Assembly (NCBI GenBank): GCA_963555815.3
Contig: CAUVWX020000001.1
Location: 768,001-832,000, forward strand
DNA: 64,000 nt
Reading direction: 5' to 3'
Source: a bacterium
Lineage (GTDB): Bacteria > UBA8248 > JACPRG01 > G963555815
Numbering within the stretch: position 1 is the first letter of the stretch; every line of letters begins with the position of its first letter. Positions 4,207 through 54,330 of the stretch are shown in pieces. The notes beneath the pieces were generated by a model. The model did no database searches. It was not told where the DNA came from and saw only the letters and a list, made by a program, of their open reading frames with translations. Position numbers and translations under genes: made by a program.

Positions 4207-5655
<1,449 letters not shown>

Positions 5656-5673
5656 CCCGGGAAAGCGAAGAAG

Positions 5674-6096
5674 ATGACGACCGAGGGACCACAAAAAGTA
5701 CGCCTGGAGGTTGTAACCCCAGAGCGCCTTCTTCTCTCCGAGGAGGTGGACATGGTGAGCGCCCCCGGGGCGCTGGGGGAGTTTGGCGTCCTCCCCTTTC
5801 ACACCCCTCTTCTGACGACCCTGGACATCGGTGAGGTTGTGTATCGAAAGGGAGAGAAGACACACCACCTGGCCCTCAGTTGGGGCTACGCCGAGGTTGG
5901 GCCCGAGAAGGTGACCATCCTGGCGGAGGTGGCTGAGAAGGCGGAGGAGATTGACTTGAAAAGGGCTGAGGTGGCTGAGGGGCGTGCTCTGAAGCGTCTC
6001 AGAGAGCAGCAAGGCCCAGTCGATATCGAAAGGGCTCGGGTGGCCCTGGAAAGGGCGCGCGTGCGCCTTCGGGTTGCGAGAAAGGACTCTAAATGA
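5674..6096 (+). CDS. atpC: ATP synthase F1 subunit epsilon
   Basis: LEVVTPER, GEFGVLPFHTP, C-terminal helical hairpin. Confidence 0.96.
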   Translation: MTTEGPQKVRLEVVTPERLLLSEEVDMVSAPGALGEFGVLPFHTPLLTTLDIGEVVYRKGEKTHHLALSWGYAEVGPEKVTILAEVAEKAEEIDLKRAEVAEGRALKRLREQQGPVDIERARVALERARVRLRVARKDSK

Positions 6097-44546: not shown

Positions 44547-45275
44547 TCAAGACCTCCGCTTTCCCCTTAGCCGAGGCGCGCTTTTCTCTCCGGGCAGGTT
44601 TTTTAAGGGATAGACGCATTCTTTCATAAGAGGGCATTCCCAACAGTGGGGTTTTCTCGCCTGGCAGATATATTTGCCGAACTTCCACATGTGGATGTGG
44701 GTGGAGTAGGCCTTTCCCGGCGGAAGGAGGGCGGCCATCTCAAAGTGGGCTTTTGCGGCCGAGCAATTTTCGGGGATGAGGCCGAGCCGCAGGCAAACCC
44801 GGTGGACGTGCGTGTCCACGGGAAACGCGTCCTTCTCGAAGGTGAACATCAGGACGACGCTCAGAGTTTTTGGGCCGATCCCTTTGAGGTGCCCAATAAC
44901 CTTCTGAGCCCCCTTCAGATCTAGATCTTTCAGGAAGTCGGCGGAAAGCTCCCCGTGGGTCTTTTTTAGCCAGCGCAAAAGATCCCGAATGCGGCGGCTT
45001 TTTTGCCCCGCCAGGCCCCCCGGTCGGATGGCTTTTTCGATGGCCCGGGGGGAGGCGCGCATAACGTCTTCCCAGCTGGAAAAACGCTCCCGTAGGCGCC
45101 CGTAGGCCAGGTCGCGGTTCGCGTCCGTCGTATTTTGGGAGAGCATGGTGAGGATGAGGGAGCTCAGGGGGTCTCGCCCGTCCGGCCGCCACCTGACCGG
45201 CCTAAAGAGCGAGGACAGGACAGAGATGACCCGCCGGGTCTTTCTCTTCAGTTCAGGACGGGTAGGGGTCGCCAT
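44547..45275 (-). CDS. nth: endonuclease III-like HhH-GPD DNA glycosylase
   Basis: LSQNTTD, GIGPKT, FPVDTHV, 4Fe-4S motif C-x6-C-x2-C-x5-C. Confidence 0.9.
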   Translation of the reverse strand: MATPTRPELKRKTRRVISVLSSLFRPVRWRPDGRDPLSSLILTMLSQNTTDANRDLAYGRLRERFSSWEDVMRASPRAIEKAIRPGGLAGQKSRRIRDLLRWLKKTHGELSADFLKDLDLKGAQKVIGHLKGIGPKTLSVVLMFTFEKDAFPVDTHVHRVCLRLGLIPENCSAAKAHFEMAALLPPGKAYSTHIHMWKFGKYICQARKPHCWECPLMKECVYPLKNLPGEKSAPRLRGKRRS

Positions 45276-45336
45276 GGCGATTATATAGTTAACAAACCCA
45301 CTATTAGTTTAAAGCATTGAATGCATTTATAATTAC

Positions 45337-45486
45337 TCATTTCTTCTTACGCCCTTTCCCGCCCTTTTTCGGCTTGTTTGGTGGTGGCTTCGCCTTCAAG
45401 AGGTCGCTGACCACCTCCTCAAAGGGCAAGCCCTCAAAGGAAAGAGGCCCCTTATCCCCCCTTTTGGATCTTTTCGTCTGAGCCAT
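45337..45486 (-). CDS. 49-aa basic passenger protein (not in the ORF track)
   Basis: MAQTKRSKRGDKGPLSFEGLPFEEVVSDLLKAKPPPNKPKKGGKGRKKK; GGGGA SD-like sequence upstream. Confidence 0.6.
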   Translation of the reverse strand: MAQTKRSKRGDKGPLSFEGLPFEEVVSDLLKAKPPPNKPKKGGKGRKKK

Positions 45487-45581
45487 CACACATCCCCCAA
45501 AAAAGCTATCAGTTTTTTCTTAACACAGGTTGATTAGACTACTAGTATTAGACTAGCCTTACAGTTCTGAAAGGGGGAACC

Positions 45582-46031
45582 ATGATTAGACTTTGGATAG
45601 GTGATGTGAAAGTTGAGTGCGACACCCCTGCGGAGGCCTCCGAAATTGTCCGGCTGGTGGGGTCTCAGAGGCAGAGGCGCTCTTCTCAGAGGTTTCCATC
45701 CGAACTTCTTCAGAATTTAGCAGCCGGGCTTTCATCTGCCCCTCCACATGGGCTTGAGGTTCCGTTTCTCCAGACAATCACAGCGTCTGGGAAAGGGGTC
45801 TCTTCGAAAGACCTCGCCTCAACGCTGGGAGTAAAAAAAACGACCGCTTTGGGCCCCATTTCCAGAGCCACAGAAAAGACGTTGAGGAGCATAGGGGAAG
45901 AGCCCCGGGATGTCTATGGGATTGACAGAGAAGGACAAGTCCCTTTATGGGTTCCTGGCCCTAGAGCAAAAGAGGCTTTGAGAAAGATGGAAGGATCTGA
46001 AGGAGATCAAATGCACAGACCCCAAAAGTAA
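45582..46031 (+). CDS. hypothetical IS passenger protein, possible helix-turn-helix
   Basis: 149-aa ORF with SD AAGGGGG; GVSSKDLASTLGV..TALGP is HTH-like. Confidence 0.6.
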   Translation: MIRLWIGDVKVECDTPAEASEIVRLVGSQRQRRSSQRFPSELLQNLAAGLSSAPPHGLEVPFLQTITASGKGVSSKDLASTLGVKKTTALGPISRATEKTLRSIGEEPRDVYGIDREGQVPLWVPGPRAKEALRKMEGSEGDQMHRPQK

Positions 46032-46102
46032 AACAGCCCCCGCCAGCTGATACTGGCGAGGGCTATTATACAGGAGAACCCCGGAGGGCCTCTCCCTTAC
46101 AC
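46030..46102 (-). ncRNA. putative small RNA 1 (promoter-hairpin-terminator unit)
   Basis: TTGACA (46137-46132)-N17-TAAAGT (46114-46109); terminator AGCCCTCGCCAG/CTGGCGGGGGCT-GTTTT pairs fully (one U-G) only on the minus strand. Confidence 0.55.
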
Positions 46103-46216
46103 ATATTCACTTTAGGCCCTCTCGGTCCTCCTGTCAAGGAGGCAATCGTGAGGGCCTTTCTGTTTATGTGGCCCGGACCCATCCGTGCACCAACCCTTTC
46201 CTAAAAACGGGTCGGT

Positions 46217-46305
46217 GCGCCAGTGGTGGAATCGGTAGACACGGCGGGTCTGGGACCCGCCATTTAGCGAGGATATGTTGGTTCGAATCCGGCCTAGCGC
46301 TCCCA
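46217..46305 (+). tRNA. non-canonical class II-like tRNA with anticodon TGG
   Basis: Acceptor GCGCCAG/CTAGCGC, D arm GTG-GAATCGGTAGA-CAC, anticodon arm GCGGG-TCTGGGA-CCCGC, 16-nt variable region, T arm GTTGG-TTCGAAT-CCGGC, then TCCCA. Confidence 0.7.
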
Positions 46306-46361
46306 CTCTATTTTTTCACTGGTCTTTTAGATAGTCAAATACATCAAGAGAGGTGGATGTT

Positions 46362-47279
46362 ATGGAAACCGACATCACCAAATTGGCCGAGTATTTCTCG
46401 GATGAGAAAAAGGCCATTGAGCTAATCGAAAGGCTCCGCTGGCCTGGGGGCCCTGTCTGCCCCCATTGTGAGTCGAAAAAAGCCTATCGGCTTCGAGTAA
46501 AGAGCTTAAGGCGGAAACTGTGGAAATGTGCCAAGTGCCGAAAACAGTTTTCGGTGATGGTGGGAACCATCTTTGAGGATTCCCATATACCCCTTAAAAA
46601 GTGGCTGGTGGCAATCTATCTTATGTGTTCCTCGAAGAAGGGCATTAGTGCTAATCAGCTTCATCGGAGCCTCAAGCTAACTTACAAATCTACCTGGTTC
46701 ATGTGCCATCGAATCAGATATGCCATGAGTCAGCCACTACTAGCAGACAAACTCAAAGGAATCATAGAGGCCGATGAGACCTACATTGGCGGAAAAGCGA
46801 GGGGGACGGTCGGACGAGGGGCAGACAAAAAGGTTCCGGTCCTGGCCCTAATTGAACGTGGCGGTAGGGCAAGGTCTTTTCTATTGCCTAATGTGGGCGG
46901 GGGGACAATCCGTTCCTTAATCAAAGGTCATGTAGAAATCGAGGCGGAGATTATGACAGACCAGTTTCCCTCCTACAAAGGGCTAGGCAAGCATTTTGCG
47001 GGCCACCATGTTGTTGAACACGGAAAGCAATATGTCCGAGGCATTGTGCACACCAACTTCGCTGAGAGCTATTTTAGCCTCCTCAAGCGGGGCATTATGG
47101 GCACCTTTCACCATGTCAGCGAAAAGCATCTGCCTTTCTACCTGGCCGAGTTTGACTTTAGGTGGAATGAGCGAGAACTTTTAGATGGAGACAGAACCGC
47201 AGAGGCCATCAAATGTATCGAGGGAAAAAGGTTGACCTATAAACAGCCAAGGAAAAGACAAAACAGGAAATCTTGGTAG
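46362..47279 (+). CDS. IS1595-family (ISXO2-like) DDE transposase
   Basis: Zn ribbon CPHC/CAKC, GTIFEDSHIPL, EADETYIGG, MTD, HTNFAESYFSLLKRG, YLAEFDFRWN. Confidence 0.95.
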   Translation: METDITKLAEYFSDEKKAIELIERLRWPGGPVCPHCESKKAYRLRVKSLRRKLWKCAKCRKQFSVMVGTIFEDSHIPLKKWLVAIYLMCSSKKGISANQLHRSLKLTYKSTWFMCHRIRYAMSQPLLADKLKGIIEADETYIGGKARGTVGRGADKKVPVLALIERGGRARSFLLPNVGGGTIRSLIKGHVEIEAEIMTDQFPSYKGLGKHFAGHHVVEHGKQYVRGIVHTNFAESYFSLLKRGIMGTFHHVSEKHLPFYLAEFDFRWNERELLDGDRTAEAIKCIEGKRLTYKQPRKRQNRKSW

Positions 47280-47314
47280 TGGGTCGTTTTGAGAGGTTCT
47301 AAGGACCAGGTGGG

Positions 47315-47350
47315 GCTTGCGAAATGTCAATTAATTGACATTTCGCAAGC
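47315..47350. repeat. perfect 36-bp palindrome
   Basis: GCTTGCGAAATGTCAATT|AATTGACATTTCGCAAGC. Confidence 0.95.
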
Positions 47351-47359
47351 TGGATGGGG

Positions 47360-47610
47360 TTATTTGAGGGACAGAAGGTGTTTTTTGGCGCAGTTTAAGT
47401 CAATTTAGAGATAGTTGATCATCTGTTTAATATGACCAATCTCAATTTCCGGATTTTCACTATTTCGTGGTCCCATTGGGAAACTCCGATATATTTTTCC
47501 ACCATAGCTTATCCAAATTCTATGCTCCTTTACCTGTCAGGTGTGTTCTGGCGCACATTCCTTTAGCATTTTTTGATTTTTCTTATACGAGCCGTGCCCC
47601 TGGTAGTCAC
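47360..47610 (-). pseudogene. decayed HicA-like toxin gene
   Basis: Reconstruction MTTRGTARIRKIKK/MLKECAPEHT*QVKEHRIWISYGGKIYRSFPMGPRNSENPEIEIGHIKQMINYL*IDLNCAKKHLLSLK; frameshift in the A-run 47569-47574, stops at 47537-47539 and 47405-47407; starts 3 nt after the stop of the upstream gene. Confidence 0.55.
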
Positions 47611-47613
47611 GGC

Positions 47614-48090
47614 TCAAGCAGCTAATGCTTTCTCTAGGTCTAAGATGTTGTTTTTTGCCGCCAGCTTTCCGACCCTTCTAATTTCAGGATAAGCAGATAA
47701 TTCAGCCTTCCGTCTAATCATTCCTTCGACCTGAATATCGCCGCTTCTAACCCTCTCGACAGCCTTCCACCATTTCTTGTCTGCATCCTTGGAGGTTTCC
47801 CCAACAAACCTGTGGACCTCTCTTTTAAAAGCGGAAAAATCTGCTGAACCCGCTGAAATATCAAACAAAACGGCTTTGAACGTTTGGAGGATTTGAAGAT
47901 AAGCCTCTCCCTCGTTCTTACCACTACCAGCGATGTCTCCTGGCTGAACGCCATACATCCAAACGTCTTCTTTTCCTTCCTGCACGGCAAGAACTCGCCC
48001 GCGAATATATACATCAACTAAAAACCCATTTCCTTCCACTTTTTCTCTAAAAGTCAAGAATAGTGGCAAATGGCCTCTGGCTGCAGCCAT
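47614..48090 (-). CDS. hypothetical protein, possible HicB-like antitoxin
   Basis: SD AGGAGG; beta-beta-beta-alpha pattern VWMYGVQPGDIAGSGKNEGEAY resembling HicB N-domains; coupled to the HicA-like remnant. Confidence 0.55.
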   Translation of the reverse strand: MAAARGHLPLFLTFREKVEGNGFLVDVYIRGRVLAVQEGKEDVWMYGVQPGDIAGSGKNEGEAYLQILQTFKAVLFDISAGSADFSAFKREVHRFVGETSKDADKKWWKAVERVRSGDIQVEGMIRRKAELSAYPEIRRVGKLAAKNNILDLEKALAA

Positions 48091-48223
48091 ACGCTACCTC
48101 CTTTTGGGTATTCTCGAATTTCCCAGAATAGCAATGAGTATATCTCTACCAACTATGGCTGTCAATGGTGCTTTTGTGGAGGGAATTTCATGGGGGCATG
48201 GCGGATTTCCTCCAAGTGGGGTC

Positions 48224-48322
48224 TTGACAAACCAACCCCTTTTCCGTAAATTCCCCTACGGTGAAGGAAATCTCTTAGTCTTTTGTGGCCGGAAACCGCT
48301 GGCGGGCGGTTCCGGCCTTTTT
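48224..48322 (+). ncRNA. putative small RNA 2 with its own promoter and intrinsic terminator
   Basis: TTGACA (48224-48229)-N17-TAAATT (48247-48252); ~60 nt later GGCCGGAAACCGC-loop-GCGGTTCCGGCC-TTTTT. Confidence 0.55.
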
Positions 48323-48535
48323 GCTATTAGGGCCGGATCCTCTGCTTCCTTCTACAACTCCTCGTTCACCAAATAAAATATAGCCTAGAATGGTGCGCCC
48401 GTCAATGGTTGTCCTTTTGGGTTTGTGAAAGGGATAATCGCCGTCGCCATAGGCGAAAATGTCACAAAAGTAAGGGTTTAGGCCCATATTGTGTGTTTCT
48501 CCACAGGGTTTTCCACAAGATGTGGAAATAACCCC

Positions 48536-54180: not shown

Positions 54181-54237
54181 GAAGGATCTGGCCCCCTTGA
54201 AGCCCTCGAAAGGGCCCCGGCTCGGCCAGCCGATTTC

Positions 54238-54321
54238 AACCGCTTCCCTACGCTGGCATTGCCCAGGTCAGGTTCAAAGGGTTGTCGGGAACCGACTCTC
54301 AGTCAGCCACCCCTAGCGGTT
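54238..54321 (-). promoter_or_regulatory. TPP riboswitch aptamer
   Basis: AGGGGTG..CTGAGA..ACCCTTTGAACCTGA..GG.AATGCC.GCGTAGGGAA upstream of thiSGE. Confidence 0.95.
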
Positions 54322-54330
54322 CTTTTAAAT

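Follow-up and report, generated by a model that had tools for sequence, protein, structure and literature searches.

An IS1595-family element with cargo genes

The locus described here lies in the window, the 64,000-nt stretch of bacterial DNA that was analysed, and forms part of an IS1595-family element with cargo. The element is 3167 bp long (positions 45276 to 48442, no strand assigned). It combines a transposase matching family model NF033547 (215 bits against a cut-off of 75) with imperfect terminal inverted repeats and a flanking 8-bp target duplication (45268-45275 and 48443-48450), and is present in a single copy genome-wide. Read along the plus strand, it presents a promoter-like site, ORF149, a candidate switch region, a tRNA-like gene and the transposase gene.

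The sense promoter (45520..45548, plus strand) scores 9/12 and is the sole consensus plus-strand promoter in the 45000-47500 interval. No further one was found between it and the transposase gene, including the 130 nt directly 5' of the latter; a consensus sense promoter is present in 38 of 61 other IS1595 loci, the window being without one. A transcript covering ORF149, the switch region, the tRNA-like gene and the transposase is predicted to begin at 45520-45548, where overlapping TAGACTA direct repeats are a possible operator.

ORF149 (45582..46031, plus strand; 149 aa) has the predicted fold of a winged-helix regulator of the MarR/ArsR type. Twenty-six remote homologues were found; the structure model, built from 26 sequences, has a pLDDT of 88, and the Foldseek matches listed consist almost entirely of winged-helix regulators (best E value 1.3e-3, none at or below 0.001). 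Because of this predicted fold a toxin role was dropped, and the model points to ORF149 as a likely regulator. Homologues with DNA context numbered none in 50 other genomes of the phylum and none in plasmids. DUF6416 is the Atlas lead for this protein.

The transposase gene (46362..47279, plus strand) matches the family model; its frame is open from 46353, with the ATG at 46362 as the likely start. A second, weaker minus-strand promoter-like site (46310..46338; 9/12, extended -10) sits in the 5' arm of a weak hairpin covering the transposase ribosome-binding site. Two cargo ORFs are found on the minus strand. One, basic and 50 aa long (45337..45489), matches nothing in Pfam; small basic ORFs judged by eye to resemble it occur in L042, L044, L046 and L055. 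The other (47614..48090, 158 aa) reaches the cut-off of no family and has a 32% paralogue elsewhere in the genome. Directly past the transposase lies a perfect 36-bp palindrome (47315-47350) with TTGACA on both strands, three central-right bases of which are changed in strain runs X7 and X13. Outside the element, an ordinary TPP riboswitch (54228-54324) precedes thiamine genes.

A predicted antisense RNA on the minus strand

The interval following ORF149 carries TTGACA-17-TAAAGT on the minus strand (46109..46137). This promoter, which the sequence-only reading of the locus had pointed out, scores 10/12 and ranks best of six promoter-like sites between 45000 and 47500 (shuffles, 1.8 ± 1.3). Its -35 box lies within a perfect 6-bp palindrome. 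Transcription is predicted to start at 46102-46104 and to yield an RNA of about 73 nt with two hairpins (46030..46102, minus strand), as judged from sequence signals only. At its 3' end is hairpin A (46028..46067, stem 46032-46067), a terminator-like stem of 16 pairs with the tail GUUUUAC. Hairpin A folds at -29.7 kcal/mol on the minus strand versus -21.1 on the plus strand (z -7.8), where it has two pairs fewer and a U-poor tail; the short hairpin likewise folds better on the minus strand (-15.5 versus -10.7). Thus, the short hairpin, the stem that pairs fully on one strand only and the self-contained unit of about 70 nt that had been proposed all withstood scrutiny, promoter and terminator delimiting the predicted 73-nt species. 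The folding energy of a 76-nt unit, -47.2 (z -6.25), was equalled in none of 200 shuffles. Terminator-like sites as such are no more numerous here than expected (3, versus 3.2 by chance).

A search of Rfam with this RNA matched no family at its gathering score; His-leader and sroE scored far below their cut-offs, on account of the terminator stem. A 12-codon leaderless ORF within the RNA was considered and rejected: its third codon (46098) is a stop in 5 of 5 variant runs covering it. The antisense unit is real and well formed in sequence, the RNA and its effect being predicted, and is best read as encoding a small antisense RNA with a repressor role.

Two alternative folds on the plus strand

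The plus strand of this region can form two helices, built from three segments of a candidate switch that measures about 140 nt. Segment 1, the pre-emptor (46070..46092), lies entirely beneath the antisense RNA and forms a 19-bp helix with segment 2 (46114..46134), which includes the anti-Shine-Dalgarno CCUCCU and doubles as the antisense promoter's spacer. The partner of segment 2 is either segment 1 or segment 3 (46136..46166), never both. Segment 3 comprises AAGGAGG (46136-46142), the 46150-46160 site discussed below and a U-rich tail. Pairing of segments 2 and 3 produces hairpin C (46114-46157, -31.1 kcal/mol), which hides AAGGAGG and is followed by the U-rich tail. An inverted repeat around the antisense -10 had been noted before; it exists but is longer than claimed, 19 bp joining 46070-46092 to 46114-46134, and the three GAGGGCC/GGCCCTC copies are parts of this larger plus-strand two-state arrangement.

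When successively longer transcripts were folded, the 1:2 helix (-30.2 kcal/mol) formed with a probability of about 1.0 in those ending between 46126 and 46149, and yielded to the 2:3 helix (P 1.0) at 46158. As an isolated duplex, 1:2 reaches -32.7, compared with -16.5 ± 3.2 for shuffled sequences; none of 2000 shuffles was as good, and 4 of 5000 random genomic 46-mers attained this energy, both null sets having been chosen post hoc. The margin for 1:2 is smaller when the whole prefix is folded (35 of 2000 shuffles; 108 of 3000 with the entire region shuffled). The Shine-Dalgarno sequence is unpaired with probabilities of 0.59-0.96 in the free leader versus 0.00-0.13 (six of seven positions) when the part covered by the antisense RNA is blocked. 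At equilibrium the terminator state is favoured without the RNA as well (-41.8 for 46068-46158; -45.4 for 46068-46168, versus -35.2 when 1:2 is forced), so that read-through would require a kinetic trap.

When 52 loci were screened for promoter, terminator and both helices with a detector tuned on this locus, the window alone was returned. A second detector, also tuned here, placed the window first of 717 promoter-like genome sites for both helices (weaker helix -30.9, next -22.5) and first among 329 sites in 87 loci.

The antisense RNA forms a duplex of -87 kcal/mol with its perfect complement in cis. The sequence-only reading had nevertheless placed its target in trans, at plus-strand 46150-46160, based on an 11-nt complement with one G-U pair. 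This match is genuine (-20.1 as an isolated duplex) and not due to chance, 68 such sites in the genome corresponding to 0.004 expected per 250-nt leader. It is explained by the architecture: as the complement of segment 1, the RNA resembles segment 2 and hence matches segment 3. As a target, however, the site was rejected. Co-folding of the RNA with the folded leader gains 0.0 kcal/mol, versus -87 in cis; the site is already paired in cis, in the 3' arm of hairpin C, and the 11-mer lies mostly within the RNA's own stem. Hence, of the proposed trans-acting antisense repressor, the antisense repressor remains the preferred reading, with its predicted action moved to the complement in cis.

The 18-codon ORF and the tRNA-like gene

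Five nucleotides past AAGGAGG, a GTG opens an 18-codon ORF (46148..46204, plus strand), whose translation is putative. The peptide has three prolines, a hydrophobic first half and a mean hydropathy of 0.47; the frame stays open in the strain variants seen. In the 46176-46226 interval, base pairing is possible between the 3' part of this ORF and the 5' acceptor-stem strand of the tRNA-like gene, and translation might govern folding of the tRNA.

The tRNA-like gene (about 46217..46305, plus strand) has a leucine-type body, a UGG anticodon and C33. Its destabilising alleles are absent from other strains: those of runs X7, X11 and X13 restore pairing of the variable arm and the T stem, and X7 and X11 have A73, with one acceptor-stem change of their own (46299). 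Since the alleles of other strains pair better, the window copy looks decayed.

Similar leucine-body UGG tRNA-like genes are seen in IS1595 and IS1-like elements (window 46217-46305, G000 C1 981508-981595, L042, L044-L049 and L055). They mostly have C33 (U33 in L055), G1:C72 and A73, usually with a hairpin just before the 5' end. The C33-UGG pattern occurs in nine metagenome loci and, among 51 genomes, in this genome alone; none was found in viral contigs or in four sets of other genomes (0/5, 0/5, 0/401 and 0/401). Loci L041 and L043 have a leucine-body tRNA with a GGG anticodon and, some 55 nt past it, a promoter-like site plus 13 nt exactly complementary to its own anticodon arm. By eye, a Shine-Dalgarno-like site with a proline-containing frame of 4-6 codons is discernible at the end of the upstream ORF in the window (46011-46031) and in L044, L045 and L047. 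At G000 C1 981503-982075 (L035 4004-4576), an IS1-like cargo ORF spans the whole tRNA-like gene and stops just after it. Locus L001, whose transposase is a 56% relative with the same terminal repeats, has, close to the right end, a 94-nt tRNA-Leu(UAA)-like gene (5642-5735). Recoding of proline codons as leucine in the transposase was considered and rejected: one of ten columns was suggestive, yet proline is found there in five transposases of loci in which no tRNA was detected.

Allo-tRNAs are linked to transposon proteins, and the portion of the source examined contains no 'UGG' (PMC5389517). We consider quite unlikely, as a whole, a scheme in which the antisense attenuator senses element copies and rations both the transposase and a leucine-body tRNA with a proline anticodon, translation of the 18-codon leader freeing the tRNA 5' strand and Pro-to-Leu misreading occurring when the antisense RNA is scarce, for example after entry into a new cell.

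Variation among strains

Strains were compared using contigs of 6 of 20 runs (X2, X7, X11, X13, X16 and X17), X16 and X17 covering the region partially at a depth under 3. Run X2 has no change in the switch region. The other five show at least seven variable sites within 46064-46112 (19 of the 22 X11 differences being listed), one of which, 46065, is changed in X17 alone; among the strain differences listed, no change falls in 46030-46063 or 46113-46170. Variable positions amount to 4 of 22 in the switch loop, versus one in the 73 that make up segments 1-3 plus the tail (Fisher p 0.01, computed post hoc on related strains).

At 46064 and 46086, two well-supported changes leave the minus-strand hairpins paired through G-U and disrupt pairs on the plus strand. 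That pairing is kept only on the minus strand supports the antisense RNA. The 46086 variant (X7 and X11) also breaks one 1:2 pair, bringing this helix from -30.2 to -24.4 (P 0.65 at 46149), which counts against helix 1:2. The element occupies the same site in strains whose contigs reach its ends. In X11, 759 nt of the transposase are deleted. Given the single copy, the fixed site, the decayed tRNA and this deletion, the switch may be a relic; it is possibly decaying in the window's copy.

A similar module in IS1-like elements

Conservation in related insertion sequences, which had been put forward as a check, was found in close strains only. A homologue of the unit was seen in none of 60 relatives, nor in plasmids, phages, viral contigs or 51 genomes of the phylum; one viral-contig search gave seven matches, all without the unit's layout. 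The three closest transposase relatives (L055, L056 and L001) have an ordinary sense promoter. The nearest that shares the tRNA type, L055, has a leucine-body UGG tRNA but lacks the switch.

The same genome harbours a second element, IS1-like (below the NCBIfam cut-off), also with a leucine-body UGG tRNA. It shows the same geometry directly before its transposase, with a similar antisense promoter. A 17-bp helix hides the ribosome-binding site (0 of 2000 shuffles). With a wide arm, its pre-emptor was matched by 13 of 2000 shuffles; with the automatic, narrower arm it is not significant (174 of 500). Of 100 other TTGAC-17-TA...T sites in the genome, the L091 promoter is the closest (26/41, versus 17.9 ± 2.6; next 25).

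An antisense module precedes the transposase in 9 of 23 IS1-like loci (L091-L096, L100, L101 and L106). It sits about 170 nt before the transposase, with promoters scoring 8-10 of 12, L093 having been placed by eye. These nine loci have identities of 52-100%, and the 14 without the module 42-49%, several of the latter being truncated or poorly anchored. The predicted RNAs (75-85 nt, two hairpins) fold better on the antisense strand in all nine cases, and the pre-emptor is significant in seven. In the antisense hairpins, 8 of 24 pairs show two-sided changes, a level reached in none of 500 shuffles; this covariation comes from eight sequences (L091 was omitted for poor alignment), with the structure derived from the same, related sequences. 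No Rfam family matched the module in 16 loci. Just upstream of it, tRNA-like genes with other anticodons were observed in L092, L095, L096, L100 and L101.

A covariance model built from the eight IS1-like RNAs (R1) picked out the window RNA at its correct position and on its correct strand, ranking it 8 of 45 with 10.3 bits (E 0.78). Training members scored 52-86 bits and a held-out L035 copy 12.9 bits (E 1.2). This score is within noise, and the window unit is best taken as an analogue of the IS1-like module.

A model for the switch and its alternatives

We regard it as reasonably probable that the unit is a cis-encoded countertranscript controlling a two-state leader of the pT181/pSK41 type inside the IS1595 element, the RNA and its effect being predicted from sequence. 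A transcript from 45520 would run through ORF149 and the plus-strand form of hairpin A. In the absence of antisense RNA, segment 1 would seize segment 2 as it emerges, by kinetic capture, and the terminator would close too late; polymerase would go on to transcribe the 18-codon ORF, the tRNA-like gene and the transposase gene. With the antisense RNA bound to 46030-46102, segment 2 would pair with segment 3, transcription would stop near 46160 and the ribosome-binding site would be hidden. If stable and driven by a strong promoter, the RNA would make the off state the default and would act on further copies of the element as well. The switch thus likely gates the 18-codon ORF, the leucine-body UGG tRNA gene and the transposase.

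An alternative that we find unlikely is that no RNA switching takes place at present. The locus would be the relic of an antisense switch that a tRNA cassette displaced from the transposase, or its inverted repeats would be operators for the winged-helix protein, placed about the antisense promoter. In the IS1-like elements, the hidden ribosome-binding site is that of the transposase; here it leads to the 18-codon ORF. This, together with the single copy, the decayed tRNA, the transposase deletion in one strain and the -35 box set in a perfect 6-bp palindrome, fits such a view. However, segments 2 and 3, the -35 box and the tail are unchanged in the covering runs while the loop varies, and both hairpins are better formed on the minus strand, a feature that a DNA operator does not need.

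Hairpin C could also be the plain terminator of ORF149, the small RNA pairing with the 3' UTR and causing RNase III decay, with the tRNA and transposase expressed otherwise or hardly at all. That hairpin C with its U-tail is the equilibrium fold, that the RNA overlaps 73 nt perfectly (-87) and that 23 of 61 other IS1595 loci likewise have no consensus sense promoter would all agree with this. We nonetheless deem it improbable, as it leaves unexplained both the 19-bp 1:2 helix (0 of 2000 shuffles) and the hidden AAGGAGG-GTG.

The proposal that the small RNA is an RNA antitoxin lost its upstream partner with the predicted winged helix of ORF149 and survives as a minor option through the 18-codon ORF. 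In this very improbable scenario, akin to type I toxin-antitoxin systems, the ORF would encode a toxic peptide, the antisense RNA would shut its ribosome-binding site and the pair would stabilise the element. Toxins of the Ibs type are of similar length, and the perfect AAGGAGG, placed 5 nt before the GTG and sequestered in one state, the hydrophobic first half and the frame kept open in the variants seen are in line with it. Against it, three prolines in 18 residues and a hydropathy of 0.47 disfavour a membrane helix, the peptide is too short to search and its conservation is known within strains only, and the same motif geometry serves the transposase in IS1-like loci.

Least probable of all is a trans repressor invading 46150-46160 in the way phage C4/CI RNAs bind separate sites: although the 11-mer is improbable by chance (0.004 expected per 250-nt leader), the bare duplex with 46146-46165 reaches -27.5 and the read-through state leaves segment 3 exposed, the net gain on the folded leader is 0.0, the 11-mer sits in a stem of the RNA and in no loop, the match stems from the resemblance of the RNA to segment 2, and Rfam C4 is unmatched.

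Comparison with known antisense systems

In the cis-acting reading that we favour, the layout recalls that of pT181 (RNAI/repC) and pIP501 (RNAIII/repR), where a short countertranscript covers the leader and a pre-emptor competes for the terminator 5' arm (PMC5703833, in part). As in pT181, which has a pre-emptor and a terminator hairpin containing the ribosome-binding site, hairpin C holds such a site; as in pIP501, where CopR is encoded upstream, a helix-turn-helix gene precedes the unit (PMC5703833, in part). Sequence signals are present for an antisense RNA gene with its own promoter and terminator, for a pre-emptor and for a U-tract hairpin with a ribosome-binding site. Unlike in the plasmids, the host is an insertion sequence with no rep gene, an 18-codon ORF, a tRNA-like gene and a transposase lie downstream, and co-transcription of the regulator gene is predicted; the likeness is of layout alone, with no sequence likeness claimed. 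The window unit works like the plasmid systems without being a member of them, a replication initiator being absent. In pSK41 (RNAI/rep), the translational version of this design, an RNA of about 80 nt with two stem-loops pairs upstream and thereby brings about a hairpin in which the ribosome-binding site is hidden, as envisaged here; control there is of translation only (PMC5703833, in part), whereas the U-tail after hairpin C predicts termination as well.

Among insertion sequences, IS10 RNA-OUT and IS200 art200 pair with the 5' region of the transposase message; they are, as the window RNA would be, cis-encoded antisense RNAs able to reach all copies and limiting transposase (PMC4513863, in part). 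By contrast, the window RNA (46030-46102) is encoded far upstream of the transposase (46362), about 260 nt separating the 3' end of its interval from the transposase start, and would act by refolding. The IS1-like module shares with the window an antisense promoter, a two-hairpin RNA, a pre-emptor, a hidden ribosome-binding site and, in several loci, an odd tRNA gene nearby; it differs in that the hidden site is the transposase's own and no U-tail follows.

The CI RNA of phage P4 is grouped with the C4 RNAs of P1 and P7, being a repressor of about 75 nt on a mobile element. C4 RNA is released from a longer transcript by RNase P cleavage, comprises three stem-loops and binds separate sites through its loops (PMC5320573, in part); the window RNA resembles it in size (about 75 nt), location on a mobile element and predicted repressor role. 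It has two hairpins instead, its own promoter and a complementary 11-mer held mostly in a stem. The earlier likening to C4/CI could not be upheld given these features and the lack of any Rfam match at gathering score or at E<=10, and what the insertion sequence carries is probably a pre-emptor switch of the plasmid type and no trans repressor of the C4 kind.

No paper on a comparable switch in IS1595 or IS1 elements turned up in searches of an open-access library. Known antisense control of transposons consists in a direct block of the transposase start region (IS10, IS200). If the model is correct, insertion sequences would have a second route of copy-number control, a pre-emptor switch like those of plasmids that includes a predicted termination step. 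Such a switch would also account for the way in which elements with cargo keep a possibly harmful mis-decoding tRNA silent. With covariation support and no Rfam family, the IS1-like module is a ready candidate family. At a further IS1595 locus (L016, 1040-1230), unusually long, near-perfect hairpins surround a promoter-like site 3' of the transposase.
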